Origin: Spirochaetia bacterium
GTDB taxonomy: Bacteria; Spirochaetota; Spirochaetia; SP-2023
Direction of reading: 5' to 3'
Length of the DNA stretch: 64,000 bases
NCBI GenBank assembly: GCA_965225855.1
Contig: CBDDCK010000005.1
Location: 736,001-800,000 of the forward strand
Shown: positions 30,485 to 48,969 of the stretch, piece by piece
Layout of the letters: each line of letters starts with the position of its first letter
Numbering within the stretch: the stretch's first letter is position 1
Position numbers and translations under genes: made by a program
Notes under the pieces: model-generated
Told to the model about the DNA's origin: nothing
The model's database searches: none
The model's input: the letters and a program-made list of their open reading frames with translations, nothing else

Positions 30485-30530
30485 TTTGTGGGCTAGGGCC
30501 TTATTAGTTTATGGGCTAGGGCCTTAGGGA

Positions 30531-31877: not shown

Positions 31878-32050
31878 GGGCGTTCACGGTGGTAAAAATT
31901 GCAAAACCCTTATAAAATGCTTGTTAAAATCTTACTTACATAATATCAAAAAGCATATAATGCAGAGTAAGGCACATTTTATAAACCAATAAAATAGAAG
32001 AGGTGTGGTATGAATTATGCTATTTGGAACAATAAAGGCGGGGTAGGCAA
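31878..32050 (+). repeat. About 130-bp leader (copy 1) plus first parA codons; second copy at about 38886-39020
   Basis: ttcacggtgg...caaaacccttataaaatgctt...aaaatctta..tacataatatcaaaaagcatataa...agagtaa.gcacatttta is shared with 38891-39000. Confidence 0.85.
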
Positions 32051-33041
32051 GTCTTTTTTAACGTTTGTGTTGGCCACAGAATACGCCAAAGCGCACCCCA
32101 AACAACAAGTATGTGTGATAGACATGTGCCCGCAGGCCAATGTGAGCGAAATACTTTTAGGTGGCAACGGCAAGGGCCATAAAAATATCTCTAGCTTTCT
32201 TTCTAGCACGGACAATAGAGGAAGAACAACCATCGGAGGGTATTTGGACAAAAGATTATCCCAGCCCGATAGCAAGACTGGCAATGAATCCCATTATGCC
32301 ATAGCGATAAAAAAAGATTTTGCAATAAGTAACATTCCCAACAATCTTTTATTGGTTTGTGGCGATCCTTCGTTGGAGCTGCAAGTACAGTCTATTAATC
32401 AAATAGCTTCGGTAGATTTGCCGGAAGGCCGATGGGGCAATGTGCATCACTGGATTCAAGACCTTATCGATGGAATCTCTAGCAATTACGACAACAATGT
32501 GGTTTATTTTATAGATTGTAACCCCAGTTTTGCCACCTACACAGCCCAAGCGGTATTGGCAGCCCAAAGGTTGATCGTACCGTGTACTGCCGATGGAGCT
32601 TCGGCGCGGGCTATAGACAACATTGGCCAATTATTATATGGCGTTGGGGTGTCGCAACTGTATGCCAAAACCAATTTTTGCGCCAAAGCCAAGGAAAACC
32701 ATTTGGAAATTCCTAAAATACACCTTGTTTTGCTCAATAGATACACTACCAGTAGCAATGCCCCCAGTAAAGCATTTGAAGCTATGTACAAAGAAGTAAG
32801 GAATAGAGTCTCTACATTTACTGGCAAAGATATTTTACTGAACAATGATACAGAGAGAACTTGCCAAGAGATACCCGATGCCCACGCGGTAGCGATAACT
32901 TCTTCGGAGTTAGCAATTCCTATTTCAGAATTAACGGCTAAAGCATATCCATTACAACACGGCCAAACACAGATTAACCAAGCACCGCTAGAACGCTATC
33001 AAAAGGCCATCAATAAGATACTTCCATTATTATTGCAATAG
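32010..33041 (+). CDS. Orphan ParA/Soj-family ATPase
   Basis: Deviant Walker A NNKGGVGKS, IDMCPQAN, IDCNPS; no parB adjacent. Confidence 0.88.
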   Translation: MNYAIWNNKGGVGKSFLTFVLATEYAKAHPKQQVCVIDMCPQANVSEILLGGNGKGHKNISSFLSSTDNRGRTTIGGYLDKRLSQPDSKTGNESHYAIAIKKDFAISNIPNNLLLVCGDPSLELQVQSINQIASVDLPEGRWGNVHHWIQDLIDGISSNYDNNVVYFIDCNPSFATYTAQAVLAAQRLIVPCTADGASARAIDNIGQLLYGVGVSQLYAKTNFCAKAKENHLEIPKIHLVLLNRYTTSSNAPSKAFEAMYKEVRNRVSTFTGKDILLNNDTERTCQEIPDAHAVAITSSELAIPISELTAKAYPLQHGQTQINQAPLERYQKAINKILPLLLQ

Positions 33042-33059: not shown

Positions 33060-33208
33060 GCGCCCCGGCTAAATACGGGGAGAGCTTAGGCTAAATACGG
33101 GAAGAGCTTTAGACAAATACGGGGAGAGCTTCGGCTAAATACGGGAATAAGTTTGACGCAATACGCAAATAAATTATCGTTATACAGTATAAACAAATAG
33201 GAGAAACT
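33060..33208 (+). repeat. 22-bp-period array 1 (5 units, core AATACG) plus promoter/RBS leader of mod1
   Basis: AATACG at 33072, 33094, 33116, 33138, 33160. The last unit carries TTGACG-N16-TATCGT, then AGGAG. Confidence 0.9.
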
Positions 33209-35095
33209 ATGAAGACCCCACCCCTAAGCCTAGAATACCTAAAGAATTTACTACAAGCCCAGCCGCACTACCTAGACCAAGAGGGCGAGCTAAACACGGC
33301 TTTATTGTATAAGCTAGCCCAGCAGTGCCAGCGCAATTTGCTGGAATTGTTGTTTGCCGATACGGCTGCGCGCAAGGCGTTTTTCTTGGAACAAGGCGGG
33401 GTTACGGTATTTGTGCGCGACCATTTTATCGACTACATACAGCACAAACGCTTTGTGGCCAATAGCTACACCGCCTATCGTAACAAAATTGGCTTGCACG
33501 ATGAGCACGACTATCTAAAGAAAAGCCAAGATGTGGTGCTGGCCTTTCCGTTTAAAGACTGCGTACTGGAAGGTGGCCAAACTAAAGACGATGCCAAGCG
33601 CAGCGAACGCTACTACCACCGCATACTGGCGATAGAACAACTTGACCGCTTGCTGGACCCCAAAGTGCTAACTAACGCGCGCCGCTATACTAAGGAGGGC
33701 CCAAGCGAATGTAGGGAATTTACCCGCAAACCAAGCGACCATACCATTAGCGATAATTTGATTATTAAAGGCAACAATTTAATTGCGTTGCATACCATCA
33801 AGGAACAGTTTGCCAAAAAAGTACAGCTGATCTACATCGACCCACCGTATAACACCGGCAACGATAGCTTTTTGTATAACGACAACTTTAACCACAGCAC
33901 TTGGTTGGTATTTATGAAAAATCGCCTAGAAGCAGCGCGCGAACTGCTGCGAGACGATGGCGTGATTTTTGTTCAGTGTGATGACAACGAACAGGCTTAT
34001 TTGAAGGTACTCATGGACGAAGTCTTTGGACGGGAGAATTTTGTTGCTAGTTTAGTTTATAAAAGAAGAAAAACCCAAGCAAATCTAACTAAGTGGATTG
34101 CTCCTATACATGAATATATTTTAGGATTTGCGAAGAGTAAAAATAGTTTATCAATAAATAGAATACCTTTGCGACAAGAGTATGTGAAAGAAATGTATAA
34201 GAATCCTGATAATGATTCCCGTGGTTTATGGAGAACGAAACCGTTAGCATCGCCTGATAACTCACCTAACAAAGAGTTTGAATTAGATTTAAGAAACGGC
34301 AGAAAAATTAAAGCAAAATGGAGAGTTTCCCAAAAGACTTATGATCAATACTTAAAAGATAATTTAGTCGTTATCCCTAGAGGCGGGGAAGGAATGCCTA
34401 ATGCAAAAGTTTTTTTGAAAGATAATGAAGGGCAAATACCTAATACTCTTTTAATTGATGTTGCAACGAATGAACAAGGCAGTAAAGAAATAGAACTTAT
34501 TTTTGGCTCTAATAGTGCTTTTGCCTATCCCAAGCCGGAAGGGCTGTTACAAAGGATTATCGAGATTGCCACTAAGCAAGGCGACCTAGTGCTAGACTTT
34601 TGTTTGGGCAGCGGAACTACTGCGGCGGTTGCCCACAAAATGGGCAGGCAATATATCGGCATTGAACAAATGGACTATATACAAACTATTGCGGTAGAGC
34701 GCCTTACCAAAGTTATTGCCGGCGAACAGGGCGGCATCAGCAAAAATGTAGCTTGGCAAGGCGGTGGCAGCTTTGTCTATTTAGAGCTGAAAGCGCACAA
34801 CCAAACTTTTATAGGGCGTATTACCGAGGCCACCACCCAAGCGCAAATGGCGCAAATACAGCAAGAGTTACTCAAAAACCCAGATTTGGACTACCGCCTA
34901 AACACCCAAGAGGTACGGCAGAGCGCCGAAGATTTTGCCGCGCTAAGCCTAGACGATCAAAGGCAAGCGCTTATTGACTTTTTGGAACTAAACCAATTAT
35001 ATGTGCCGTATACCGAGCGCAAAGACACGCGCTTTAATTGCACAGACAAAGAAATTAACCTAAGCGAAAGTTTTTACAAGGGAGAAAAATCATGA
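33209..35095 (+). CDS. mod: Type III R-M Mod subunit 1 (beta-class adenine MTase)
   Basis: NLIIKGNNL, IYIDPPYNTG, YPKPEGLL, LDFCLGSGTT, GIEQMDY. Confidence 0.9.
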   Translation: MKTPPLSLEYLKNLLQAQPHYLDQEGELNTALLYKLAQQCQRNLLELLFADTAARKAFFLEQGGVTVFVRDHFIDYIQHKRFVANSYTAYRNKIGLHDEHDYLKKSQDVVLAFPFKDCVLEGGQTKDDAKRSERYYHRILAIEQLDRLLDPKVLTNARRYTKEGPSECREFTRKPSDHTISDNLIIKGNNLIALHTIKEQFAKKVQLIYIDPPYNTGNDSFLYNDNFNHSTWLVFMKNRLEAARELLRDDGVIFVQCDDNEQAYLKVLMDEVFGRENFVASLVYKRRKTQANLTKWIAPIHEYILGFAKSKNSLSINRIPLRQEYVKEMYKNPDNDSRGLWRTKPLASPDNSPNKEFELDLRNGRKIKAKWRVSQKTYDQYLKDNLVVIPRGGEGMPNAKVFLKDNEGQIPNTLLIDVATNEQGSKEIELIFGSNSAFAYPKPEGLLQRIIEIATKQGDLVLDFCLGSGTTAAVAHKMGRQYIGIEQMDYIQTIAVERLTKVIAGEQGGISKNVAWQGGGSFVYLELKAHNQTFIGRITEATTQAQMAQIQQELLKNPDLDYRLNTQEVRQSAEDFAALSLDDQRQALIDFLELNQLYVPYTERKDTRFNCTDKEINLSESFYKGEKS

Positions 35096-36636
35096 ACGAC
35101 CGTGAAATAGAATTTTTTACACAGATTATTGATAATCCCAATTCTACCAATGAACAGAAGGCGGGGGCGTATGGTAGTAGGGGAAATGCTTACAGCGAAC
35201 AAGGAAAGTATAAAGAGGCCATAGCCGACTTTACCCAAGCCATTGAGCTATTTACAGATAATAACGACAAAGCAATAGCTTATTTCAACAGAGGCCTTAC
35301 TTATTTTCAACAAAAAGGATACGAGCCTGCCATAGCAGACTATAGACAGGCCATTGGCTTATCTACAGATAACAACGACAAAGCAAAGGCGTATTTCAAC
35401 AGAGGCTATGTTTATAGAGAACAAAAAGAATATGAGCCCGCCATAGTGGATTTCACTCAAGCCATTGGGCTATTCACGGATAATAACGACAAAGCCAATG
35501 CGTATTTCAACAGAGGAGCTATTTACGGGGAACAAGAAAAATATAAGCTAGCGATAGCGGATTTTACCCAGGCCATTAGCTTATCTAAAGATAACAACGA
35601 CAAAGCAAAGATATATGATAACAGAGGCAATGCTTACTGTAAAACAGGAAAATACCAACAAGCGATAGCAAACTATACACAAGGGATTGACTTATATACA
35701 GATAACAACGACAAAGCCAATGCGTATTTCAACAGAGGCAATGCGTACAACAAACAAGGAAAATACCAACAAGCGATAGCAAACTATACACAAGGGATTG
35801 ACTTATATACAGATAACAACGACAAAGCCAATGCGTATTTCAACAGAGGCAATGCGTACAACAAACAAGGAAAATATCCAGAAGCCATAGCCGACTATAC
35901 CCAAGCCATTGACTTATACAAAGCGGATAACGACAAAGCAATTGCGTATTTAAACAGAGGCAATGCTTACGGAGAACAAGAAAAATACCAGCAAGCAATA
36001 GATGATTTTACAGAGGCCATTGAGTTATTCACGGATAACAACGATAAAGCAAAGGCATATCATAATAGGGCTATTGTTTACGGAGAACAAGAAAAATACC
36101 AGCAAGCGATAGCGGATTTTACAGAGGCCATTGGCTTATTCACGGATAATAACGACAAAGCCAATGCGTATTATAACATAGGCATTGTTTACGGAGAACA
36201 AGAAAAATACCAGCAAGCAATAGATGATTTTACAGAGGCCATTGAGTTATTCACGGATAACAACGATAAAGCAAAGGCATATCATAATAGGGCTATTGTT
36301 TACGGAGAACAAGAAAAATACCAGCAAGCAATAGATGATTTTACAGAGGCCATTGGCTTATTCACGGATAATAACGACAAAGCCAATGCGTATTATAACA
36401 TAGGCATTGCTTACGGAGAACAAGAAAAATACCAGCAAGCAATAGATGATTTTACAGAGGCCATTGAGTTATTCACGGATAATAACGAAAAAGCAGAGGC
36501 GCATTACAACAGGGGCCTTATTTACAGCAAACAAGAAAAATACGAACAAGCAGTAGCAGATTTTGATGAAGTTACAAAGCTAAACCCAGACCATGAATTA
36601 AAATACTTACAACAAGAAATTGCTGCTATATTATGA
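35092..36636 (+). CDS. TPR protein with 13 x 37-aa repeats
   Basis: AxAYxNRGxxY...AIADFTQAI.L-TDNNDK repeats; ATGA overlap with the mod1 stop. Confidence 0.92.
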   Translation: MNDREIEFFTQIIDNPNSTNEQKAGAYGSRGNAYSEQGKYKEAIADFTQAIELFTDNNDKAIAYFNRGLTYFQQKGYEPAIADYRQAIGLSTDNNDKAKAYFNRGYVYREQKEYEPAIVDFTQAIGLFTDNNDKANAYFNRGAIYGEQEKYKLAIADFTQAISLSKDNNDKAKIYDNRGNAYCKTGKYQQAIANYTQGIDLYTDNNDKANAYFNRGNAYNKQGKYQQAIANYTQGIDLYTDNNDKANAYFNRGNAYNKQGKYPEAIADYTQAIDLYKADNDKAIAYLNRGNAYGEQEKYQQAIDDFTEAIELFTDNNDKAKAYHNRAIVYGEQEKYQQAIADFTEAIGLFTDNNDKANAYYNIGIVYGEQEKYQQAIDDFTEAIELFTDNNDKAKAYHNRAIVYGEQEKYQQAIDDFTEAIGLFTDNNDKANAYYNIGIAYGEQEKYQQAIDDFTEAIELFTDNNEKAEAHYNRGLIYSKQEKYEQAVADFDEVTKLNPDHELKYLQQEIAAIL

Positions 36637-37790
36637 AACAAGAGTACATAAAGCTTATTGATTATCTCAATATGGCTTTAAGGCGTGGTTTACCGACTGA
36701 ACCTGTAAAAGCATACATTAAAAATACATTTGGCAAACAAGATACTGTTATTGATAGTATACTTGTTATCTTTGAAAATGTTCTCCATATACTAGATGAA
36801 TTAAAGGTAAGCAAAGATTCTAAAGACAAAGTAAAATACCTTTCTCATACAACCAAACTGCCAGTATTTACTAAGTATTTGGTCCCGATAAACAGTGAGG
36901 GAGAACCAGAACTAGGCAAATTGCACATGTACCATATTGCCTATGCCAACGACCCCACCGAAGGAACGGTGCTATTGGACCACTTAGGCATTGCGCACGA
37001 ACCAATAAAATCCAGTGCCAATATTCCCTATGTAATGGTGGCCAGCTTTTGTGGTGGCCAAACACCCGAAGCATTAGACCGTTTGCCCATATGGAGTATG
37101 TACGGCGATGATGCTAAAGGTATTGCCTTGCTCTTTCAAACAGAAGACTTAGCCTATAGTGGGCCAGAGCATGCCCTACCGCGTTTTTCATCATTTGAAT
37201 TTAATAAATTAAGTGATGATAGTAAGCAAGGCAAAGTGGCTACAGTGGCACAAAAAAATAAAGAAAGCACAGAAGAAGCGCCCCCACAGATATTATACAA
37301 AGTCCGATATATAGATAGCAGCAACCAAGAAGTGGATGGGGAAATGAAGGAAATAAGAGACAGCCTTAAACAAATAAAAGAAAAAGAGCAACAAATAAAG
37401 GAAGAGAATAAAAATGACCTTTCGATATACCATAAATGCTTAGAGTTACTAAACGGCATACGCTATTTGATAAAAGACAAAAGCTATGCCCACGAACAAG
37501 AATATCGTTTCGTGTGTTTTGCCGGTACCGAACATATCCCTGAAATACTAAAAAGAGAAGTGCTTACAGAACCAGAACAAGAGCCAAAAGATACCCAAGA
37601 CCATAGCCGCTCTCGTATTTATGTAGAAACCGATATACTAAAGAAGCTATGCGCGGTACTAACGGCCCCGAAAATAGAAAAGGGAAACGTCCTAGATATA
37701 CAGTATATTTTGCATTGGTATACAAAGTCGGACCAATTCCTCAAACCAGAACAATTGCCCGTATATACAAGCAGTATTCCGTACCGCTAG
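36633..37790 (+). CDS. DUF2971-like domain protein
   Basis: ANDPTEG, SFC...DRLPIWSMYGDD.KGIAL, LYKVRY and K..SYAHEQEYR motifs typical of DUF2971 proteins; ATGA overlap with the TPR gene. Confidence 0.7.
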   Translation: MKQEYIKLIDYLNMALRRGLPTEPVKAYIKNTFGKQDTVIDSILVIFENVLHILDELKVSKDSKDKVKYLSHTTKLPVFTKYLVPINSEGEPELGKLHMYHIAYANDPTEGTVLLDHLGIAHEPIKSSANIPYVMVASFCGGQTPEALDRLPIWSMYGDDAKGIALLFQTEDLAYSGPEHALPRFSSFEFNKLSDDSKQGKVATVAQKNKESTEEAPPQILYKVRYIDSSNQEVDGEMKEIRDSLKQIKEKEQQIKEENKNDLSIYHKCLELLNGIRYLIKDKSYAHEQEYRFVCFAGTEHIPEILKREVLTEPEQEPKDTQDHSRSRIYVETDILKKLCAVLTAPKIEKGNVLDIQYILHWYTKSDQFLKPEQLPVYTSSIPYR

Positions 37791-37797
37791 CTTGCGG

Positions 37798-37913
37798 CCC
37801 GGCCCGGCTCAATACGCAAAGCGCCCCGCTCTAAATACCGAGAGAGCCCCGGCAATATATGCAAAGAACTTTAGCAATATAGCGATGGACAAAAATAAAA
37901 GGCACGGTACAAT
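37798..37913 (+). repeat. Degenerate 22-bp-period array 2 and promoter before the TIR gene
   Basis: aatacgcaaa at 37811 and aataccgaga at 37834, with weaker units after; TGGACA-N16-TACAAT at 37886-37913. Confidence 0.6.
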
Positions 37914-37965
37914 ACTTTTGCTAAGCTATGTTTTAGCCGATAGTAAAGGTTAAGGAGAAACTATT

Positions 37966-38379
37966 ATGAAAACCTACCATTTGTTTATAAGCCATTCTTG
38001 GACTTATGAAAATCAGTATGATAACCTTGTGAATTTATTAAATAATGCGCAGGATTTTAGGTACAAGAATTATTCTGTAGCGAAAGACAACCCTATCCAT
38101 ACTAATGGAACAAACAAACAATTACGAGTTGCGATAGCAGAAAAGATACGAAATAGCTCTGTTATATTAGTTCTTGCTGGAGTATATGCAACATATAGCA
38201 AATGGATTAATATAGAGATAGAAATAGCTAAAAACGACTTTTCACGCAAAAAGCCGATTATTGCCCTTGAACCGCGGGGAGCAAACAGAACATCTCAATA
38301 TGTAAAAGAGAATGCCGATGCCATAGTCAAATGGAATACCAATAGTATAGTTAAAGCCATTCAAGAGCTACGCTCGTAA
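37966..38379 (+). CDS. TIR domain protein (MTH538/DUF1863, ThsB-like)
   Basis: LFISHSW, SSVILVLAG, SKWINIEI (catalytic Glu position retained), KPIIAL, IVKWN. Confidence 0.85.
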   Translation: MKTYHLFISHSWTYENQYDNLVNLLNNAQDFRYKNYSVAKDNPIHTNGTNKQLRVAIAEKIRNSSVILVLAGVYATYSKWINIEIEIAKNDFSRKKPIIALEPRGANRTSQYVKENADAIVKWNTNSIVKAIQELRS

Positions 38380-38380
38380 T

Positions 38381-38851
38381 ATGAAAAAGCAAGATAACCC
38401 CGAAATAAGTACCTTATTAGAATTGTACAAACTCTATGTACAAACCGCAGAAAGCACCAGCGATAGAAGGCTGCGCAGTAACCGGTTTTACCTTACCTTT
38501 TGTTCTGTGCTGGCCAGCAGTGCCTATGCTCTGTTTCAGTTGGGGAAAGCAGACGGCTTATTTATATTTATTGCCAGTATTTTTGGCGTGTTGTTTTCTT
38601 TTGTGTGGCTGTGCAATATACGCTCTTACAAGGCCTTAAACAGCGGCAAGTTTGCGGTTATCCATAAGTTAGAGCAACAATTGCCTTTTGCCTGCTTTAG
38701 CGAAGAATGGCAGGAATTAGGGCGCCTGGGCTATAATCAGCGTATAAAGTACCGGCTGCTTAGCAATATTGAAAGTTTTGTACCGATGATCTTTATTGCC
38801 GGCTTTAAGCTGGTGATTCTGCTATATATCTATAGTTATTTTTGGGGCTAA
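38381..38851 (+). CDS. Small 3-TM membrane protein (RipA-like oligomeric membrane protein family)
   Basis: LYKLYVQTAE..SDRR..SNRFYL, W...IRSYKALNSGKFAVIHKLEQQLP, EEW, IE..VP..F; starts 1 nt after the TIR stop. Confidence 0.65.
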   Translation: MKKQDNPEISTLLELYKLYVQTAESTSDRRLRSNRFYLTFCSVLASSAYALFQLGKADGLFIFIASIFGVLFSFVWLCNIRSYKALNSGKFAVIHKLEQQLPFACFSEEWQELGRLGYNQRIKYRLLSNIESFVPMIFIAGFKLVILLYIYSYFWG

Positions 38852-38885
38852 GCGCCTAGCATTGCTGCCAATAGCCAAAGCGCCC

Positions 38886-39020
38886 GGGCCATTCACGGTG
38901 GGGTAAATACCAAAACCCTTATAAAATGCTTTTCAAAATCTTAGCTACATAATATCAAAAAGCATATAAACTAGAGTAAAGCACATTTTAGTAACCAACA
39001 AAAGTAAAGGCGGGGTAGGC
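38886..39020 (+). repeat. About 130-bp leader (copy 2) ending in a 16-nt parA remnant
   Basis: Homologous to 31878-31995; ends in taaaggcggggtaggc, identical to the parA K-G-G-V-G codons. Confidence 0.85.
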
Positions 39021-39079
39021 TATTATGCTAAGATATTGATTATTAGATTGCTTGGGATAGAATTTATTGATAAGGGCTT

Positions 39080-40780
39080 GTGATGGCATACAATACACCG
39101 ATACATACCGAAAATCAAACTTTGGAAGAAATATTTGCCAATAGCAAACAGTACCAAGTACCTAAATTCCAGCGGGACTATTCTTGGGAACAAGAGCAAT
39201 GGCAAGTATTGTGGGACGATATTCAAACTATTGCCGAAGCTAGCGAAGACTACCACTATATGGGCTACTTAGTATTACAACAGGGGCAGCAAAACAAACA
39301 ATTTATTGTTGTCGATGGCCAGCAACGGCTTACGACCTTTTCTTTACTGGCACTTAGTGCGATTGGCAGGTTTAAGCAGTTAGGGCATGCGGATACCGCT
39401 AAAGAGTTTTTCCGCCGTTTTATTGGTTCAGAACAATATAGCTTTATTAAGATAACAGAGAAAAAACTTATCTTAAACAAGAACAATGAATATTATTACA
39501 ATCAATTAGTTAGCTTTTACAAACAAGACGCAGCAGCACAGCAAGCCCCGATACACAAGAGAGGCCAAAAGCAAACCGTTATTCTTATGGGCAAAGCGAT
39601 AGAGTATTTTAGCCAGCAGCTGGCTGGGCTAAGTGCCCAAAAAATCAGTGAGCTACTGCAAACTATGGCCGAGCGGGTATTGTTTACCACTATTTTTATT
39701 GCCGATCAAGTAAATGCCTACAAGATTTTTGAAACCTTAAACGCGCGCGGCGTACAGCTTAGCACGGGAGACTTACTAAAAAACTATATTTTTTCAGCAA
39801 TAGATACAAATGGACAAATCCCCGATGAAGAGCTAAACAGACTGGAAGAGATATGGGAAAACATAGGCCACAACGTTGGCAAGCATAAATACAGCGACTA
39901 TATTTTAGTGCAATGGAAAAGTAGCCATAGGCCTTTGCGCCCCAAACAACACCTTTTTACCACGATAAAAAAGCAGGTTTGTGGCGAGCAGCAAGCCAGT
40001 ACATACTTACAAATATTAGAACAAGACAGCGAGTTGTACAGTGCTTTGCTGGATTATGAGCACCATCTTTGGAAAGATTTTGACCAGTACCAGCAAGTAA
40101 CACAAGATATACGGGTACTGAATTTGTTTAACCTAAAGCAACCGATTAGCGTATTGCTAGCTGCGTACAAAAAATACAAGCCCAAACAATTTGCCACTAT
40201 ATTGCATTGGCTGATGGTATTTTCTATCCGCTACAATGTGATTTGCCGCTTGTATGCCAGTGAGCAAGAACATTTTTATAGTAAATTATGCCAACAAATA
40301 CAGCAACAAACGCCACTTGCCGAAGTAAAAACAACTATGCTGCAAGGTTTGTACCCCAACGATGAACTATTTAAACGGGCTTTTAGCGAAAAGTCCCTGC
40401 CAACCGAACAATCAAATAAGAAAGCTCGCTATATACTGGTAGCCCTGTGCCAATGCATGGGCGATAAAGCCCTTGATGAACAGCAACTTACCGTAGAACA
40501 CTTATTGCCACTAAAGCCCAATCAATTTTGGCAAGATAGTTTTGAGCAATCCACTAAGGCCTTTGCTACCCGTTTGGGCAATATGGCCCTAGTGGATTCT
40601 AAGATCAATCAGGAATTGGGGCAAAAACCCTTTGCCCAGAAAAGGCAGATGATCTTACAACAAAACATTTGCCCAATAAACCAAAGCCTGGCCGATTATA
40701 TGGAATGGACAACCGATACAATCCATTCGCGCCAAAGGGAAATGGCGCAAACAGCGTGCCGAACTTGGCAAATCAATTAA
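39080..40780 (+). CDS. DUF262 + DUF1524 (GmrSD-like) protein
   Basis: VPKFQRDYSW, VVDGQQRLTT, FETLNARG (DUF262); VEHLLP...RLGNMAL...N (HNH-like DUF1524). Confidence 0.88.
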   Translation: MMAYNTPIHTENQTLEEIFANSKQYQVPKFQRDYSWEQEQWQVLWDDIQTIAEASEDYHYMGYLVLQQGQQNKQFIVVDGQQRLTTFSLLALSAIGRFKQLGHADTAKEFFRRFIGSEQYSFIKITEKKLILNKNNEYYYNQLVSFYKQDAAAQQAPIHKRGQKQTVILMGKAIEYFSQQLAGLSAQKISELLQTMAERVLFTTIFIADQVNAYKIFETLNARGVQLSTGDLLKNYIFSAIDTNGQIPDEELNRLEEIWENIGHNVGKHKYSDYILVQWKSSHRPLRPKQHLFTTIKKQVCGEQQASTYLQILEQDSELYSALLDYEHHLWKDFDQYQQVTQDIRVLNLFNLKQPISVLLAAYKKYKPKQFATILHWLMVFSIRYNVICRLYASEQEHFYSKLCQQIQQQTPLAEVKTTMLQGLYPNDELFKRAFSEKSLPTEQSNKKARYILVALCQCMGDKALDEQQLTVEHLLPLKPNQFWQDSFEQSTKAFATRLGNMALVDSKINQELGQKPFAQKRQMILQQNICPINQSLADYMEWTTDTIHSRQREMAQTACRTWQIN

Positions 40781-40789
40781 CATACAGGC

Positions 40790-40941
40790 AAACCACCCCG
40801 GCTAAATACGGGAAGAGCCCGAGCTAAATACGGAGAGAGCTTGGGCTAAATACGGGGAGAGCCCGCCCTAAATACGGGAATAACTTCGGCGCAATACGCA
40901 AATAGATTATAGTTATATAGTATAAACAAATAGGAGAAACC
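40790..40941 (+). repeat. 22-bp-period array 3 (5 units) plus leader
   Basis: AATACG at 40805, 40827, 40849, 40871, 40893; same ttatagttata...aaacaaataggagaaac leader. Confidence 0.9.
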
Positions 40942-41109
40942 ATGAAAAGCCAATCCCTAAGCCTAGAATCCTTAAAAGCTTTGCTAAAGGCACAACACCA
41001 CTACCTAGACCAAGAAGGCGAGCTAAACACAGCTTTGCTGCATAAGCTAGCCCAACAGTGTGAGCACAATTTGCTGGAATTGTTATGGGCAGACAAAATT
41101 ATTGGATAA
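40942..41109 (+). pseudogene. 5' remnant of a mod gene (55 codons)
   Basis: MKSQSLSLESLKALLKAQHHYLDQEGELNTALLHKLAQQCEHNLLELLWAD... matches the Mod N-terminus, then stops. Confidence 0.9.
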
Positions 41110-41126
41110 AGAGAGTTTGATTTTTT

Positions 41127-41294
41127 ATGAATAAACCTAGTAAAGAGACTAAATTTAAAACGGTTATCGAGAGAAATACCTTTTATTTTTACAACAAGAT
41201 ATTTGAAGAAAAATATGAAGGATATTTAAATTCTCTAAAAGAAACTTTAGTGATTCTAAAATATAAAATAGAAGAGGTTTTTTCTGGAAAATAA
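41127..41294 (+). pseudogene. Short AT-rich ORF, possibly an internally deleted type II restriction endonuclease gene
   Basis: MNKPSKETKFKTVIERNTFYFYNKIFEEKYEGYLNSLKETLVILKYKIEEVFSGK resembles, from memory, N-termini of DpnII-family REases; ends 5 nt before the MTase. Confidence 0.45.
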
Positions 41295-41299
41295 GTTTT

Positions 41300-42217
41300 A
41301 TGTTAGAAAGTTATTTGAACAAAATTATTCAAGGCGACTGTTTACCATTATTAAAAGGCATTCCCAATGATTCTATAGATATTACATTTGCAGACCCACC
41401 TTTTAATTTAAAGAAGAAATATAATGGATATAAAGATAGTTTAGAATTTATAGAATATATTAATTGGTGTGAAGAATGGATAAAAGAAATGATTAGAATA
41501 ACCAAACCTACGGGTTCTATCTTTTTACATAATATACCTAAATGGCTAACTTTCTATGTGGGTATACTGAACAAATACGCTTATTTCAAGCATTGGATAG
41601 TGTGGAATGCCCCGAGTTCTCCTATGGGCAAAAGTTTACAACCCAATCATTATGGCATTTTGTTCTATACCAAACAAAGTAACAACACAAAGATTTATGA
41701 ATTGAGAATGCCACATGAAAGGGAAAGGAAAACGACATTTCTAAGAAAAGATTACGGTGGAAAGAAGGGAGGATTGCATCCTTTTGGCCCTTTGGTTTCC
41801 GATGTATGGTCGGATATACATAGAATCAAACATGCCAAATATAGAAATGCCCATCCTTGCCAACTACCAGTTCATTTATTAGAAAGGATAATATTATTGA
41901 CAACAGACCAACATGATATAGTTTTCGATCCTTTTGTTGGCACTGGCACCACAGCGGTAGCAGCCAAGAAATTAAATAGAAAGTTTATTGGTTTTGACTT
42001 AGCTCAAGAATACGTAAAAGTAGCTCAAGAAAATTTAGCTGCGGTACAACCAAACTCAAAAATTAACGATATATGGGTGAGTTTCTATTTAGAAGAGATA
42101 AAAACCATAAGAGATAAAGACTGGGATATACTATCAAGAAATTTTGAAATACCCAGCAACTTAACAGAAATTGACTTTAAAAAGATCAAACTGAAAAATG
42201 TTTCCAGTCTTTTTTGA
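41300..42217 (+). CDS. Orphan site-specific DNA methyltransferase (beta class, amino-MTase)
   Basis: FADPPFN, HPCQLP, FDPFVGTGTT. Confidence 0.9.
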   Translation: MLESYLNKIIQGDCLPLLKGIPNDSIDITFADPPFNLKKKYNGYKDSLEFIEYINWCEEWIKEMIRITKPTGSIFLHNIPKWLTFYVGILNKYAYFKHWIVWNAPSSPMGKSLQPNHYGILFYTKQSNNTKIYELRMPHERERKTTFLRKDYGGKKGGLHPFGPLVSDVWSDIHRIKHAKYRNAHPCQLPVHLLERIILLTTDQHDIVFDPFVGTGTTAVAAKKLNRKFIGFDLAQEYVKVAQENLAAVQPNSKINDIWVSFYLEEIKTIRDKDWDILSRNFEIPSNLTEIDFKKIKLKNVSSLF

Positions 42218-42287
42218 AAGAGGACGACATTGTGCTAGACTTTTGTTTGATCAATACCAATAGCCTCTGCTCCAAAATTATTTGCGC

Positions 42288-42462
42288 CAAACCACCCCGG
42301 CTAAATACGCAAAGCGCCCCGGCTAAATACGCTTAGAGCTTGGGCTAAATACGGGAAGAGCCCGCCTTAAATACGGGAATAACTTTGGTTAAATACGGGA
42401 ATAAGTTTGACGCAATACGCAAATAAATTATAGTTATACAGTATAAACAAATAGGAGAAACC
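42288..42462 (+). repeat. 22-bp-period array 4 (6 units) plus promoter/RBS leader of mod2
   Basis: AATACG at 42304, 42326, 42348, 42370, 42392, 42414; TTGACG-N16-TATAGT. Confidence 0.9.
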
Positions 42463-44409
42463 ATGAAGACCCCAGCCCTAAGCCTAGAATCCTTAAAAAC
42501 TTTGCTACAAGCCCAGCCGCACTATGTAGACCCAGAAGGCGAGCTCAACACGGCTTTATTGTATAAGCTAGCCCAGCAGTGCCAGCGCAATTTGCTAGAA
42601 TTGTTGTTTGCGGACACGGCCGCGCGCAAGGCGTTTTTCTTGCAGCAGGGCGGGGTTACGGTGTTTGTGCGCGACCATTTTATCGACTACATACAGCACA
42701 AACGCTTTGTAGCCAACAGCTACACCGCCTATAAAAACAAAATCGGCTTGCACGATGAGCACGACTATCTAAAGAAAAGCCAAGATATTGTGCTGGCCTT
42801 TCCGTTTAAAGACTGCGTACTGGAGGGTGGCCAAACTAAAGACGATGCCAAACGCAGCGAACGCTACTACCACCGCATACTGGCGATAGAGGAACTTGAC
42901 CGCTTGCTGGACCCCAAAGTGCTAACTAACGCGCGCCGCTACACTAAGGAGGGCCTAAGCGAATGTAGGGAATTTACCCGCAGCCCAAGCAATAATACCA
43001 TTAGCGACAATTTGATTATCAAGGGCAACAACCTTATCGCCTTGCACAGCATCAAGGAACAATTTGCCAAAAAAGTAAAGCTGATCTATATCGACCCGCC
43101 ATATAATCCTCAAAGCCCCAATAATACTTTTTGCTACAATAATAATTTTAACCGTTCTACTTGGTTAGTGTTTATGAAAAATCGCTTGGAAGTAGCCAAG
43201 CAATTATTGACAGAAGACGGAGCGATAATTATTGCCATTGATGACAATGAAAGGGATTATTTGGGCGTTTTGTTAAGAGAATTATTTCATGAAGACCAAC
43301 ACGAAACCCATTGTATTACCATTGTGCACAACCCTCGTGGGGTACAAGGCACAAATTTTTCTTATACCCATGAATACGCATTCTTTGTAATACCCAAAGG
43401 AAAAAAGACTATTATAAACCAAAAAATAGCAGCAGAAAATATTACTTTTAGAGGTTTACGAGACAATGGCGGTATAAGTTTAAGAAGTGATGCTAAGAAT
43501 TGTTTTTATCCGATTATAGTAGATAAACAGAGCAAGCAAGTTATTGGCTTTGGGGCAGTCTGTGAAGATAGCTTTTCTCCCAAAGCGCGCATGATAGAAC
43601 ATGCCGATACGTATGCTATTTATCCGGTAGATGATGGCGGCGTAGAACGCAAATGGCGGTATGCCTATCAATCGGTAGCCAAAGTAAAGCACTTGTTGCG
43701 TGCTAGAGAAGTAAAAGGTATATGGGATATTCAAATAGGCAAAGACTTTCGCCAATACCCAACGGTATGGCAAAATACCAAATATGATGCCAATGAATAC
43801 GGCACGAAACTGATTAAATCTTTAGTGCCCAATGCCAGCTTTGACTTTCCCAAATCTTTATGGACTGTGTACGACTGCCTCTATGCTGTTGTCGGAGAAG
43901 ATAAAAATGCGATTGTTTTAGATTATCATGCGGGTAGTGGCACAACCGCACACGCTGTATTGGAATTAAATAAACAAGACAACGGCAATCGGCAATTTAT
44001 ACTTTGTGAACAAATGGACTATATAGAAAATGTAACCAGTCAAAGAATCCAAGCTGTATTAAAGCAAGAAAATATAGATAACAGCTTTGTCTATTTGGAG
44101 CTAAAACAGCACAACCAAGGCTTTATACAGCGTATTACCGAGGCCACCACCCAAGCGCAACTTAGCGCAATACAGCAAGAGTTACTGCAAAACCCCGATT
44201 TGGACTACCGCCTGAATACCGAAGCCGTGCAACAAAGCACCGAAGATTTTGCTGCGCTAAGCCTAGACAATCAAAGGCAAATATTGATAGACTTTTTGGA
44301 ACTCAACCAATTGTATGTGCCGTATAGCGAGCGCAAAGATACGCGCTTTCATTGCACGGACCAAGAAATACCACTAAGCGAAAGTTTTTACAACGGAGGC
44401 CAAGCATGA
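42463..44409 (+). CDS. mod: Type III R-M Mod subunit 2
   Basis: IYIDPPYN, FPKS, LDYHAGSGTT; termini nearly identical to mod1, centre unrelated. Confidence 0.9.
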   Translation: MKTPALSLESLKTLLQAQPHYVDPEGELNTALLYKLAQQCQRNLLELLFADTAARKAFFLQQGGVTVFVRDHFIDYIQHKRFVANSYTAYKNKIGLHDEHDYLKKSQDIVLAFPFKDCVLEGGQTKDDAKRSERYYHRILAIEELDRLLDPKVLTNARRYTKEGLSECREFTRSPSNNTISDNLIIKGNNLIALHSIKEQFAKKVKLIYIDPPYNPQSPNNTFCYNNNFNRSTWLVFMKNRLEVAKQLLTEDGAIIIAIDDNERDYLGVLLRELFHEDQHETHCITIVHNPRGVQGTNFSYTHEYAFFVIPKGKKTIINQKIAAENITFRGLRDNGGISLRSDAKNCFYPIIVDKQSKQVIGFGAVCEDSFSPKARMIEHADTYAIYPVDDGGVERKWRYAYQSVAKVKHLLRAREVKGIWDIQIGKDFRQYPTVWQNTKYDANEYGTKLIKSLVPNASFDFPKSLWTVYDCLYAVVGEDKNAIVLDYHAGSGTTAHAVLELNKQDNGNRQFILCEQMDYIENVTSQRIQAVLKQENIDNSFVYLELKQHNQGFIQRITEATTQAQLSAIQQELLQNPDLDYRLNTEAVQQSTEDFAALSLDNQRQILIDFLELNQLYVPYSERKDTRFHCTDQEIPLSESFYNGGQA

Positions 44410-45506
44410 ATAACCGTGAAATAGAACAGTATACAAGGATTATTGACGACCCCAATTCTACCAATGAACAGAAGGCGGAGGTGTATATAGATAGGGGGCT
44501 TACTTATGCTATACAAGGGGAATTTGTAAAAGCGATAGCGGATTTTACAGAGGCTATAGGGCTAGCAACAGATAATGAAACGAAAGCAAATGTATATTTA
44601 GACAGAGGGCTTACTTACAGCAAACAAGGAAAATACCAGCAAGCGATAGCCGACTTTAACCAAGCCATTGAGTTAGCAACAGATAATGAAACGAAAGCAA
44701 AGGTTTATAACAACAGAGGAGCTATTTACAGCGAACAAGGAGAATACCAGCTAGCGCTAGCGGATTTTACCCAGGCCATTAAGCGATATACGGATAATAA
44801 CGACAAAGCCAATGCGTATATCAACAGAGGCGTTGCTTATGATGAACAAGAAAAATATCCAGAGGCCATAGCCGACTATAAAAATGCCTTAAACTTAAAC
44901 CCAAAACTTAAAGAAGCAAGAATAAATCTAGCTATAGCCGAAGTAAAAGAAAAACAAGCAAAATTTGACCGTTTATCTGGGGAGGCTCGCAGTTTTGGGT
45001 TGGCAAAAGAATATCAAGAGGAACAAGATAAACTAAACAAATATGTGAAGAAATGTACAAAATGGTTTATAGTAGGAATAGGAGCGCTAATCGTTGTAGT
45101 CTTATTGCAGATTACAGTAGGAATATTATCACTATTTGGTGTAACTTTCTGGCGGATCGATTGGAGTAAGATTTCTTTTAGTCTTACGACTATACTCACT
45201 ACCTTGCCTTTGCTTGCCCCCATAATATGGCTTACCAGTTTCTTTGCCAAACGCAGGAGCGAGGCCAATATGCTTTTGCAAGAATATAGCCACAAAACCA
45301 TATTTGCCAAATCGTATATTGCCTATAAACAGGAAATAGAAAAGCTAGAAAGCCCAGACTCGAACCTACAGCCCAAGTTATTAGAAGCAATGATAGAGAC
45401 ACTAAAACGCAGCCCGACAACTATTTTTAGCAAAAAACACTCCAGCGACTTACCGATTGAAGAGCTAAAGCAAATAATCGAGCTTGCCAAAACACTAAAA
45501 AGTTAG
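44406..45506 (+). CDS. TPR protein (4 repeats) with coiled-coil and 2-TM C-terminal domain
   Basis: Start at ATG 44406 (ATGA overlap with mod2); 37-aa TPRs; hydrophobic WFIVGIGALIVVVLL and LPLLAPIIWLTSFF; EYSHKTIFAKSY tail. Confidence 0.85.
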   Translation: MNNREIEQYTRIIDDPNSTNEQKAEVYIDRGLTYAIQGEFVKAIADFTEAIGLATDNETKANVYLDRGLTYSKQGKYQQAIADFNQAIELATDNETKAKVYNNRGAIYSEQGEYQLALADFTQAIKRYTDNNDKANAYINRGVAYDEQEKYPEAIADYKNALNLNPKLKEARINLAIAEVKEKQAKFDRLSGEARSFGLAKEYQEEQDKLNKYVKKCTKWFIVGIGALIVVVLLQITVGILSLFGVTFWRIDWSKISFSLTTILTTLPLLAPIIWLTSFFAKRRSEANMLLQEYSHKTIFAKSYIAYKQEIEKLESPDSNLQPKLLEAMIETLKRSPTTIFSKKHSSDLPIEELKQIIELAKTLKS

Positions 45507-45521
45507 CGTTGCCTTTCAAGA

Positions 45522-45694
45522 AATAGCCTGCCCTAAATACGCTTAGAGCTTGGGCTAAATACGGTCAGAGCCTGCCCTAAATACGGGAAGAGCTTGGGCT
45601 AAATACGGGGAGAGCCCGCCCTAAATACGGGGAGAGCTTGGCCACTGTAGGCAAATAAATTATAGTTATACAGTATAAACAAATGGGAGAAATC
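45522..45694 (+). repeat. 22-bp-period array 5 (5 units + 1 degenerate) plus leader of mod3
   Basis: AATACG at 45536, 45558, 45580, 45602, 45624. Confidence 0.9.
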
Positions 45695-47668
45695 ATGAAA
45701 ACCCCACCCCTAAGCCTAGAATCCTTAAAAGCTTTGCTACAAGCCCAGCCGCACTATGTAGACCCAGAAGGTGAACTGAACACGGCTTTATTGCACCAGC
45801 TAGCGCAGCAGTGCCAGCGCAATTTGCTGGAATTATTGTTTGATAATAGCGCTACCCGGCAGGCGTTCTTTTTTGAGCACGAAGGGCACAGCGTATTTGT
45901 GCGCGACCATTTTATCGACTACATACAGCACAAACGCTTTGTGGCCAATAGCTACACCGCCTATCGTAATAAAATTGGCTTGCACGATGGCCAAGACTAC
46001 CTAAAGAAAAACAAGGATATTGTACTGGCCTTTCCATTTAAAGACTGCGTTTTGGAAGGCGGTCAAAGCAAAAGCGAGGCCAAACGCAGCGAACGCTACT
46101 ACCACCGCATACTGGCGATAGAGGAACTTGACCGCTTGCTGGAGCCCAAAGTGCTGTGCAACGCGCGCCGCTACACTAAGGAGGGCCCAAGCGAATGTAG
46201 GGACTTTACCCGCAATAACAGCAATAATACCATTAGCGACAATTTGATTATCAAGGGCAACAATTTAATTGCCTTGCACAGCATCAACGAACAATTTGCC
46301 AAAAAAGTAAAGCTGATCTATATCGACCCGCCGTACAACACCGGCAACGATAGCTTTTTGTACAACGACAATTTTAACCATTCTACTTGGCTAGTATTTA
46401 TCAAAAACCGTCTGGAAATAGCGCGCAAGCTATTGCGAGGGGACGGGGTGATTTTTGTGCAGTGTGATGATAACGAAATGGCTTATTTAAAGGTGTTGAT
46501 GGACGAAGTCTTTGGACGGGAGAATTTTGTCAGTACCATCACCACAAGAGCAACGCCGAATGCCAGAGACTATGGATTGATTGCGCAAATGCATGAATTT
46601 ATTTTGTTTTATGCAAACGATGTTGTTCGAGCAAATACCAATTTAATCGATATGGAGGACAACCATCAGAAAGGCTTTTGTTATACAGACCAAAAAGGAG
46701 AATTTAATATCCATCCTCTGTATAACAGTAATGTCAATTTTCATATTGACAATAGACCAAACTTATTTTACCCATTCTACCTAAATACTCATAAAACAGA
46801 TCAAAACGGCTTCTTTGAAATTTCTTTGGAAAAACAAAGTGGTTGTATCGAAATTTACCCACCAAAATCCCAAAAGGATAGTGTTCAGTTGGTCTGGCGA
46901 TGGGGCAAAGAAAAATCTTTAGCAAATATTAACAAAGAAATTGTCGGTTATCAAACAAGACAAGGTCTATTTAGAATTGTGCAAAAAATGCGTGGAGATA
47001 AACAGCTTGCTAGAACTATATGGTTTGATACAAGTATTTCGAATAGAAGAGCTACAGAAGATTTACAAAAGCTGTTTGCGGAAAAAGTCTTTGCCTATCC
47101 CAAGCCGGAAGGGCTGTTACAAAGAATTATCGAGATTGCCACTAAGGAAGGCGACCTAGTTTTGGACTTTTGTTTGGGCAGCGGCACGACTGCGGCGGTG
47201 GCCCACAAAATGGGCCGGCAATATATCGGCATAGAACAAATGGACTATATACAAACTATTGCGGTAGAGCGCCTTGCCAAAGTAATTGCCGGCGAGCAGG
47301 GCGGTATCAGCAAAAATGTGGGCTGGGCCGGCGGTGGCAGCTTTGTCTATTTGGAGCTGAAAGCACACAACCAAGCTTTTATACAGCGTATTACCGAGGC
47401 CAGCAGCCAAGCGCAACTTAGCGAAATCCAGCAAGAGTTACTACAAAACCTCGATTTGGACTACCGCCTAAATACCGAAGCCGTGCAACAAAGCGCCGAA
47501 GATTTTGCCGCGCTAAGCCTAGAAAAGCAAAGGCAAATATTGATAGACTTTTTGGAACTCAACCAATTATATGTGCCGTATAGCGAGCGCAAAGACACCC
47601 GCTTTAGCTGCACACAACAAGAAATACCACTAAGCGAAAGTTTTTACAACGGAGGAAACCATGAATAA
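45695..47668 (+). CDS. mod: Type III R-M Mod subunit 3
   Basis: IYIDPPYNTG, YPKPEGLL, LDFCLGSGTT; distinct TRD; start ATG 45695 by alignment with the other copies. Confidence 0.9.
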   Translation: MKTPPLSLESLKALLQAQPHYVDPEGELNTALLHQLAQQCQRNLLELLFDNSATRQAFFFEHEGHSVFVRDHFIDYIQHKRFVANSYTAYRNKIGLHDGQDYLKKNKDIVLAFPFKDCVLEGGQSKSEAKRSERYYHRILAIEELDRLLEPKVLCNARRYTKEGPSECRDFTRNNSNNTISDNLIIKGNNLIALHSINEQFAKKVKLIYIDPPYNTGNDSFLYNDNFNHSTWLVFIKNRLEIARKLLRGDGVIFVQCDDNEMAYLKVLMDEVFGRENFVSTITTRATPNARDYGLIAQMHEFILFYANDVVRANTNLIDMEDNHQKGFCYTDQKGEFNIHPLYNSNVNFHIDNRPNLFYPFYLNTHKTDQNGFFEISLEKQSGCIEIYPPKSQKDSVQLVWRWGKEKSLANINKEIVGYQTRQGLFRIVQKMRGDKQLARTIWFDTSISNRRATEDLQKLFAEKVFAYPKPEGLLQRIIEIATKEGDLVLDFCLGSGTTAAVAHKMGRQYIGIEQMDYIQTIAVERLAKVIAGEQGGISKNVGWAGGGSFVYLELKAHNQAFIQRITEASSQAQLSEIQQELLQNLDLDYRLNTEAVQQSAEDFAALSLEKQRQILIDFLELNQLYVPYSERKDTRFSCTQQEIPLSESFYNGGNHE

Positions 47669-48737
47669 CCGTGACATAGAACGATACACAGAGATTATTG
47701 AAAACTCGAATTTTTCAGATAAAGAGAGGGTAAAAGCGTATAACAACAGAGGCAATGCTTACAGGAGACAAAAAGAATATGAGCCCGCAATAGCGGATTT
47801 TATAGAGGCTATTGCGTTAGCAACAGATAATGAAACAAAAGCAATTGCGTATTTCAACAGAAGCTTTGCGTACTTTCAGCAAAAGAAATACGAGCTAGCG
47901 ATAAAGGACTTTACGCAAACCATTGATTTATTTACATATAGTAACCAAATGATACAGCGAGTGTTAAGAGAAGCTAAGACAAACTTTGATAATCGAGATT
48001 ATAGTGAAGCGATAGAAAAATATCAAAATATAATTCCTTCCTTAAAAGAGAATGAGGTTGGGAAAAAAGCGTATCAAGGGAGAAGTGATTCATATTTAAA
48101 ATTGGGAAAGCATAATGAGTCGATAGCCGATCATAAAAAGGCCATAGACTTAGATAGGCAATTAGAATCAGCAAAACTTTATTTGTGCCTTGCAGAAACA
48201 AAAAAGGCAGTAGAAGAAAGCAATAAGGTAAAAGAGGAATTTCAAAGCTTATATGGAGATGCCGGCAGTATTGGGCTGGCAACAGGATATGAAAAGCAAC
48301 AAGATAAACTAAATAAATATGTGAAGAAATGTACGATATGGTTTATAGTAGGAATAGGAGCGCTAATCGCTGTAGCTTTATGGCAGATATTTTGCAATAA
48401 GGATTCTTTTAGTCTTACTACTATACTCACCGCCTTGCCTTTGCTTGCCCCCATAATATGGCTTACCAGTTTCTTTGCCAAACGCAGGAGCGAGGCCAAT
48501 ATGCTTTTGCAAGAATATAGCCACAAAACCATATTTGCCAAATCTTATAGTGCTTATAAACAGGAAATAGAAAACCTAAAAAGCCCAGACTTGAACCTAC
48601 AGCCCAAGCTATTAGCAGCAATGATAGACACCATAAAACACAGCCCGAAAACTATTTTTAGCAAAAAACACTCCAGCGACTTACCGATTGAAGAGCTAAA
48701 GCAAATAATCGAGCTTGCTAAAACATTAAAAAGTTAG
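47661..48737 (+). CDS. TPR protein (about 4 repeats) with coiled-coil and 2-TM C-terminal domain
   Basis: Overlaps the mod3 stop by 8 nt; 3' half nearly identical to 44406-45506. Confidence 0.85.
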   Translation: MNNRDIERYTEIIENSNFSDKERVKAYNNRGNAYRRQKEYEPAIADFIEAIALATDNETKAIAYFNRSFAYFQQKKYELAIKDFTQTIDLFTYSNQMIQRVLREAKTNFDNRDYSEAIEKYQNIIPSLKENEVGKKAYQGRSDSYLKLGKHNESIADHKKAIDLDRQLESAKLYLCLAETKKAVEESNKVKEEFQSLYGDAGSIGLATGYEKQQDKLNKYVKKCTIWFIVGIGALIAVALWQIFCNKDSFSLTTILTALPLLAPIIWLTSFFAKRRSEANMLLQEYSHKTIFAKSYSAYKQEIENLKSPDLNLQPKLLAAMIDTIKHSPKTIFSKKHSSDLPIEELKQIIELAKTLKS

Positions 48738-48774
48738 CGTTGTCTTTCAAGAAATAGCCCGGGCGATTCAGGCC

Positions 48775-48969
48775 AAGCGCCCCGGCTAAATACGGGAAGC
48801 GCCCGCCTTAAATACGGGGAGAGCCGAAGCTAAATACGGGAAGCGCCCGCCCTAAATACGCTTAGAGCTTGGGCTAAATACGGGAAGAGCCCGCCCTAAA
48901 TACGCTTAGAGCTTGGCCACTGTAGATAAATTGATTATGATTATACACTATAACTAAATAGGAGAAACC
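48775..48969 (+). repeat. 22-bp-period array 6 (6 units) plus leader
   Basis: AATACG at 48789, 48811, 48833, 48855, 48877, 48899; ends in aaataggagaaacc. Confidence 0.9.

Follow-up and report, generated by a model that had tools for sequence, protein, structure and literature searches.

A dispersed 22-base-pair satellite at type III mod cassettes of a Spirochaetia bacterium and its possible descent from an HU-HIG binding array

A 64,000-nucleotide (nt) stretch of the genome of a Spirochaetia bacterium (assembly GCA_965225855.1, contig CBDDCK010000005.1, positions 736,001 to 800,000; hereafter the window) carries six arrays of a 22-base-pair (bp) repeat family, termed F1, in an island that holds type III restriction (res) and modification (mod) genes. 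On balance, we favor the reading that the six arrays are copies of a satellite found throughout this genome (94% complete, 5 contigs), which likely descends from a binding array of an HU-HIG protein, spread on gene cassettes and was co-opted as a promoter region. F1 would have begun as a phased array of binding sites for such a protein, dimers of which would occupy the array about two helical turns apart, and duplicated gene cassettes and ectopic recombination would then have carried it through the genome. Bound protein may repress the predicted mod promoters; since the last units overlap the predicted promoter in the mod cassettes, the effect would be a joint damping of all copies and not the choice of a single one.

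The phased arrangement of F1 in the window was evident from the hexamer AATACG, which occurred 91 times compared with 28.8 ± 5.9 times in shuffled sequences and formed five phased runs of at least three, whereas none of 100 shuffles contained any. Six arrays had been described in a first-pass annotation of the sequence, and all were found where it placed them, five of them clear (5, 5, 6, 5 and 6 units) and one, near 37800, degenerate. Its description of AATACG recurring exactly every 22 bp was also borne out, as was that of flanks drawn from a small set of variants in an order that differed from array to array. The lattice unit consists of AGAGC, seven variable bases, AAATACG and three further bases, with a partial dyad, AGC-n4-GCT. 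The small hairpins that had been suggested from this dyad received little support, the AGC/GCT pair being perfect in 65 of 171 units genome-wide and nine of ten array strands folding no better than shuffled sequence (best z among the ten, -2.1). A structured RNA was likewise rejected, there being no Rfam match at 27000-51500.

The proposal that the last unit of each array contains a -35 box was confirmed for arrays 1 and 4 (TTGACG-N16) and, in altered form that still matched the consensus, for arrays 5 and 6; array 3 gave no match in the consensus scan, and the nearest predicted promoter to array 2 lay approximately 20 bp past the array end. In mod heads, the -35 and -10 hexamers occupied two successive rows of the lattice. 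These promoters are called predicted because the scan as a whole returned 63 sites compared with 48.6 ± 7.9 expected, slightly above chance. Each array had also been said to head a cassette: arrays 1, 4 and 5 head the three intact mods of the window, arrays 3 and 6 head two mods reduced to 55-codon stubs, and array 2 heads TIR, 8xMP and GmrSD genes instead of a mod. Four further full mods with the same type of head, and no res, were present at a second locus (C5:113205-131973; positions are given as contig:position), so that the family comprises seven full mod paralogs, each coupled to a TPR gene, with six central regions (as read from an alignment) and one res. Homology between cassettes starts at the arrays or no more than about 45 bp from them, which indicates that the mod heads derive by copying from a single duplicated unit and represent one evolutionary event.

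A profile census of the genome found F1 at 51 loci that together held 171 units (1-16 per locus), with no seed in two shuffled genomes; some 23-bp variants, e.g., that at C5:1940519, fell below the seed. The loci comprised 12 mod-type heads (array 2 counted), 23 leaders of lipoprotein genes, 4 sites adjoining other type III genes, 4 sites with defence genes on either side, 2 in the tail of a TPR gene, 2 with a common block on contig C4 and 4 singles. They fall into about seven flank classes and approximately ten independent flank lineages. Placement was between called genes for 48 of the 51 loci, with 2 overlapping doubtful open reading frames (ORFs) and 1 at a contig edge, and 3 loci lay in convergent gaps, which make up 15% of intergenic bases; given so few independent flank lineages, no position bias is read from this. 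The pattern was found in none of the 40 relatives searched, and genome, metagenome and viral collections, from which very close records may be missing, gave no match. In a set of 35 distinct units selected solely by GAGC, seven core positions were 100% invariant and spacer positions 4-8 reached 40-60%, the spacer occurring in 27 variants. This combination of an invariant core and a variable 7-nt spacer supports the suggestion of the first-pass annotation that the arrays are phased protein-binding sites. The lattice overlapped a predicted promoter only in mod heads, the other flank classes being judged by eye, and the idea that satellites generate promoters in general was rejected on this ground; lipoprotein genes have a conserved -35-like motif of their own at about -91.

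The lipoprotein genes belong to a lineage-specific family whose 108 copies, one at window 6290-8401 and the rest dispersed over 107 loci, have a common promoter motif. Leaders and tails in this family are interchangeable and bear one or another satellite, and most F1 dispersal follows the family. Flanks of the copy in the window (5600-5846 and 8517-8763) contain a single F1-like unit, an array of satellite family F0 and an array of family F3. The family was not found in three congeners, and no mobilising enzyme was identified for it.

The distribution of F1 bears directly on the earlier proposal that the arrays set which mod is expressed. Under that explanation, which we consider highly improbable, the arrays are dedicated, possibly methylation-sensitive operators that choose among mods for the single res. 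The arrays do overlap the predicted promoters of all seven full mods, these mods have six central regions and one res, and the -35 differs among heads. However, a device for mod selection is not supported because 39 of the 51 loci found genome-wide lie away from mod-type heads, the kind of scatter that the first-pass annotation had itself named as refuting, and the core is invariant in all heads, so that one reader could not distinguish them. Nor is the core an avoided word, the observed/expected ratio being 1.10 for AATACG and 0.96 for AAATAC as opposed to 0.19-0.34 for CGACG, GTCAC and CATCC. (Strong avoidance in this genome of CGACG, GTCAC, CATCC, CTCAG, GGACC, CCAGG and several 6-bp palindromes marks these words as candidate restriction-modification targets.) Phase-variable type III mods and type I hsdS shufflons likewise combine several methyltransferase specificities with one restriction subunit, but here each mod is complete, has its own head and lies in the same orientation. 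No slippage tract was seen in mod1-3 or res, there was no inversion layout, and no resolvase, invertase or other serine recombinase was found; a phase-variable or shufflon system was rejected accordingly.

Plasmid iterons and parC-type arrays resemble F1 in that their direct repeats are phased at about two turns, have conserved blocks flanking a variable spacer and overlap a promoter. In contrast with these, F1 is chromosomal, occupies 51 loci and is not beside a partition operon, and the iteron proposal of the first-pass annotation found no support in that no Rep3 gene was found in the genome. No cognate Rep or ParB/ParR gene was present beside the arrays, whose neighbors are ParA-like, mod and TPR genes; ParB was not searched for genome-wide. 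Repetitive extragenic palindromes or bacterial interspersed mosaic elements moved by an associated transposase were also not indicated, since no Y1 transposase was found in the genome and the repeat has no conserved hairpin. Of the binding proteins put forward in the first-pass annotation, the HU-like protein is the most promising.

HU-HIG proteins are a clade of the HU/IHF superfamily (PF18291, PF14848 with PF14734; PDB 4FMR) described, in the part of the source available to us, as undergoing lineage-specific expansion and fast divergence (PMC5499826), and the proteins of this genome conform to that description. PF14848 had 14 matches in the genome, and a local profile added one divergent paralog, giving 15 paralogs fused to an immunoglobulin-like (Ig) domain, in addition to one short paralog; their proteins matched PDB 4FMR in sequence (E 1e-9) and fold (E 1e-16). 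PF14848 was absent from three congeners and from 16 of 17 further relatives. Tandem Repeats Finder (TRF) detected 187 arrays of period 20-25 or 43-47 belonging to several unrelated families, about eight of which are 21-23-bp satellites (F0, F1, F3, F4, F7, F8, F9 and FA1). Arrays with a period of 22/23 or double that numbered 138 (51 per Mb), whereas 400-kb samples of the congeners contained 0, 0 and 6 (0, 0 and 15 per Mb), five of the six being in one 20-kb piece. One congener locus (L050:4261-11111, genome G003, which lacks PF14848) has five 43/44-bp arrays that alternate with 21-bp, probably coding, repeats.

Most satellite families of the genome are tied to HU-HIG genes by position. Arrays of F3, F4, F7, F8 and F9 lie just upstream of Ig-fused (HU-Ig) genes and FA1 follows three such genes, whereas F0 and F1 have no HU-Ig neighbor, apart from a possible F0 remnant, noted by eye, before the paralog at C4:317934. 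A strict array detector was positive at 7 of 15 HU-Ig genes compared with 143 of 1631 other genes. The 3' remnant of an HU-Ig gene together with an FA1 array is embedded, in reverse, in a lipoprotein leader (C5:1679450-1679900). Two intact HU-Ig paralogs are divergent from lipoprotein genes.

The same pairing was seen in other genomes. In the phylum, 75 of 90 loci from 26 genomes were retained (15 were dropped for contig edges or weak matches, and microsatellites were excluded), and 46 of the 75 HU-Ig loci had an adjacent array, lying no more than 350 bp away upstream or 300 bp away downstream, representing 20 of 26 genomes and, after clustering at 50% identity, 10 of 28 clusters; a period of 21-24 was recorded for 46 of 47 array calls. 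Control ORFs were positive in 7 of 145, 8 of 141, 0 of 192 and 5 of 247 cases. Arrays of period 21-24 were also noted at 18 of 22 HU-HIG loci from Bacteroidota (19 out of a set of 22 loci, together with 3 plasmid records, mostly Parabacteroides) and, with a 21/22-bp period, at six of nine loci of short, Ig-less HU-HIG genes, two of the six being duplicates. HU-Ig arrays were dyadic above shuffled sequence in 35 of 38 cases. Genomes with 9 and 8 PF14848 matches yielded 3 and 4 arrays in samples of 200 kb, whereas those with 2 and 0 yielded none, and in one genome (G286) three of four dispersed arrays were of the family that adjoins an HU-Ig gene there. Upstream of many HU-Ig genes of family f36 (L149, L151, L154, L162, L172, L194 and L200) are long microsatellites of 7 and 8 bp, possibly length-variable promoter tracts.

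The specificity of Ig-fused HU-HIG proteins may reside in the loop of the last beta-hairpin of the Ig domain. Proteins that are 85-95% identical often have unrelated arrays, and a common loop after the last-but-one Ig strand went with a common array. With near-duplicates and one locus of ambiguous lattice (L240) dropped, sliding-window partial correlation between array sequence and this 9-residue loop gave r 0.46 in a clade of 18 (reached in 0 of 300 permutations), and in a second clade of 16 sequences the correlation peaked at the same loop (r 0.35, 3 of 300 permutations). Residues nearer the array were not correlated with its sequence, which argues against linkage alone without excluding it. 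In a structure model the loop is the low-confidence, flexible tip of a hairpin. Burroughs et al. expect, in the portion of their paper available to us, that the clasp of Ig-fused forms does not bind DNA, which leaves the Ig loop or a partner other than DNA (PMC5499826).

F1 itself resembles the HU-HIG arrays in period (21-23 bp), in conserved blocks around a variable spacer, in position and in the company it keeps, as judged from sequence, but fails in adjacency, by which an HU-HIG gene would lie within approximately 350 bp of one array of the family. The partner may be the short HU-HIG gene at 27473, the paralog at C5:924521, or a gene that is lost or unassembled. The first of these is the HU-HIG gene nearest to any F1 array, 5.2 kb away in the same island; one distant metagenome locus was the only relative of this gene with DNA context, and viral contigs contained none.

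Several results weigh against an HU-HIG origin of F1 and against a loop code. No HU-HIG gene or fragment occurs within 5 kb of any F1 array in this 94% complete assembly. F1 appears to be a poor palindrome (some spacers and some end units are inverted), in contrast with the dyad seen in most HU-Ig arrays. At L210, the closest resemblance to F1 next to an HU-Ig gene was not significant after correction (40 of 300), and a match of 22 of 32 bases between the 3' end of the window HU gene and the mod head was one of six such sites and was missed by a profile; both were rejected as links. The promoter overlap, confined to the mod lineage, counts as one event, and loci positive for pairing came mostly from two large f36 clades and one Bacteroidota genus. 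With respect to the loop, the signal failed in a third clade of 15 sequences (81 of 300 permutations), L240 is a counter-example with nearly the loop of L239 and a different array, and, given the physical linkage of loop and array, joint transfer of the two could imitate a code. For the HU-HIG clade, Burroughs et al. considered sequence specificity improbable and saw no conserved genomic linkage, according to the available portion of that paper (PMC5499826), whereas linkage to private 21-23-bp non-coding arrays is the rule here. A half-unit of F1 located 30 bp past the HU-Ig gene at the window start was also rejected, its score of 9.7 being reached at 175 sites outside arrays.

The missing partner gene is one point in favor of a rather unlikely alternative, namely that F1 is a recombinogenic minisatellite, either selfish or neutral, that has no binding partner at present. 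It would be kept by slippage and by gene conversion at its two conserved blocks and would serve as a joint for cassette duplication, and the promoter overlap would be a one-time accident of the match between 22 bp and the -35/-10 distance. Copy number varies from 1 to 16, and F1 has inserted into a coding repeat and into a convergent gap. Variants on either side of GAGC recombine freely: spacer variants pair with different upstream 4-mers, which indicates exchange at both conserved blocks. The coding insertion is in a TIR-TPR gene of 132-bp repeats, the last two of which are 241 and 240 bp long (109 and 108 bp longer) and contain five units within a stretch that was already unit-like; the insertion repeats this target, which fits homology-driven entry. 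One of the tracts is identical over 58 bp to part of an array located on a different contig and was probably imported by homology. Cassette homology starts at arrays, and in contigs from a related strain the array parts are joined, and the cassettes ordered, in combinations absent from this assembly, although confusion of paralogs may account for these. The cassette homology, shuffled unit halves and the tract inside the TPR gene are all consistent with the recombination role proposed in the first-pass annotation, and the lengthened TPR repeats count in favor of the HU-HIG reading as well. An invariant core beside a spacer of 27 variants is, however, hard to explain without selection, six sister families have partner genes, and cassette shuffling also uses common DNA that is free of arrays (31883-32022 compared with 38892-39030).

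Transport as cargo of an element resembling MITEs (miniature inverted-repeat transposable elements), moved by a resident or lost transposase, is improbable. The precedent is BrickBuilt of Porphyromonas gingivalis, a 23-nt minisatellite within a MITE that, in the part of the report available to us, occupies 19 intergenic loci and has promoter activity, and whose shortest copy (BrickBuilt_14) is tabulated beside an HU-family gene, PGN_0872 (PMC4596501), a position that counts toward the HU-HIG reading. F1 is like it in being a tandem unit of variable copy number at intergenic loci with leader and tail flanks. Common leader or tail sequences are indeed found in several F1 classes, an identical 150-bp block occurs at a pair of C4 sites that are otherwise unrelated, many arrays start with an inverted unit, and transposase genes of the IS1595 family and Mu type exist in the genome. 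BrickBuilt, as far as the available part of its description goes, has IS5-like terminal repeats, whereas F1 has several unrelated flank classes whose leaders and tails differ, has no matching insertion-sequence ends that could be found, and rides duplicated genes. No F1 was seen at IS1595 copies or Mu-like prophage ends, and comparison of the insertion-sequence region with F1 flanks gave no match among the matches listed. No empty site was seen at the two C4 arrays in one related strain, whose contigs run into the arrays and break at repeats. No Y1 or DDE_1 transposase, reverse transcriptase, resolvase or Rep3 was found in the 94% complete genome, and its two tyrosine recombinases are both among housekeeping genes. 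The Mu-like prophage (C5:1263000-1293600) recurs as additional, incomplete copies where contigs C3 and C4 end.

A wider and more tentative proposition can be put forward, one that we hold as possible with confidence short of even. Bacterial satellites of 20-23 nt would be escaped HU-HIG arrays, each paralog having a private site (read in Ig forms through a hypervariable loop) and polymerising every 21-23 bp, so that carriage on amplifying genes would seed genome-wide regulons; F1 would then have been captured by a battery of seven type III mod copies, serving them both as promoter and as operator. Constant-length, non-coding satellites of 20-23 nt were described by Subirana and Messeguer, who guessed at a protein polymerising at fixed spacing (PMC8161180, PMC6749651). 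[quoted passage not shown] Those portions name no protein, whereas here most families are tied to HU-HIG by adjacency and one supplies a predicted promoter.

Constant-length satellites, described from many bacteria, have had no assigned function, and HU-HIG proteins no assigned target; most families here adjoin a partner gene, and escaped HU-HIG arrays would help explain why bacterial repeats have a fixed length of 21-23 bases and an ever-changing sequence. The loop signal, if true, would point to orthogonal DNA readers that form a compact family diversified by nature. At the locus itself, a supposed mod switch becomes a repeat co-opted as a (predicted) promoter. What is new here is that such arrays appear to have escaped across a whole genome, together with the loop signal and the tract inserted in a TPR gene. 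No paper on HU-HIG/tandem-array pairing was found in a literature search that did not cover supplements, including the neighborhood lists of PMC5499826, and a look-up on genome-wide dispersal or loop specificity gave nothing.

Features of the window are given in Table 1. The island begins with the short HU-HIG gene, followed by type III res, two hicAB pairs and a ParA-like ATPase gene, after which array, promoter, mod and TPR gene recur as a unit.

Table 1. Coordinates of HU-HIG genes, F1 arrays, predicted promoters and cassette genes in the window
Feature	Position	Strand	Remarks
HU-HIG (Ig) gene	1..661, running 58 bases off window start	-	No array called by detector
Short (Ig-less) HU-HIG gene	27473..27853	+	Island head; itself without an array; candidate F1 partner
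Type III res, 854 aa	27920..30484	+	tblastn of genome matches only itself
ParA-like ATPase	32010..33041	+	Directly before array 1; neighbors hicAB and mod
Array 1	33060..33169	+	5 F1 units, AATACG 33072-33160; heads mod1
Predicted sigma70 promoter, TTGACG-N16-TATCGT	33153..33180	+	-35 in last array 1 unit, -10 in following lattice position
Type III mod1, 628 aa	33209..35095	+	
TPR gene	35092-36636	+	After mod1
DUF2971 gene	36633-37790	+	After TPR gene of mod1
Array 2	37799..37865	+	3 degenerate units, spacing 23 then 22; one AATACG at 37811
TIR (ThsB-like), 8xMP and GmrSD-like genes	37966-40780	+	Headed by array 2
Array 3	40793..40902	+	5 units, AATACG 40805-40893; -35 degenerate
mod 5' stub, 55 codons	40942-41109	+	Headed by array 3
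Orphan type II methyltransferase	41300-42217	+	Downstream of array 3
Array 4	42292..42423	+	6 units, AATACG 42304-42414; heads mod2
Predicted promoter, array 4, TTGACG-N16-TATAGT	42407..42434	+	Consensus scan
Type III mod2, 648 aa	42463..44409	+	Central region differs; then TPR gene ending 45506
Array 5	45524..45633	+	5 units, AATACG 45536-45624, plus degenerate terminal unit; heads mod3
Predicted promoter, array 5, TTGGCC-N17-TATAGT	45638..45666	+	Passes consensus scan
Type III mod3, 661 aa from first ATG	45683..47668	+	Then TPR gene 47661-48737
Array 6	48777..48908	+	6 units, AATACG 48789-48899; heads internally deleted mod
Predicted promoter, array 6, TTGGCC-N17-TATGAT	48913..48941	+	Passes consensus scan
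Internally deleted mod, 55-codon stub	48970-49137	+	Headed by array 6
Frameshifted TPR gene	49134-50170	+	After array 6 mod stub

Between res and the first hicA, 30481-30526 consists of two tandem 23-bp copies, after which the two hicAB pairs follow. The TIR (ThsB-like) gene is coupled to the 8xMP membrane-protein gene (37966-38851) ahead of the GmrSD-like gene, an arrangement that may represent a defence pair. The orphan methyltransferase and the DNA that precedes it (41067-42217) matched, at 94-95%, a contig of approximately tenfold greater depth from the same run, which has 817 extra bases at window 41272-41274. By this comparison, the segment is likely a captured type II R-M cassette, the nuclease gene of which was deleted, joined to the mod 5' stub.

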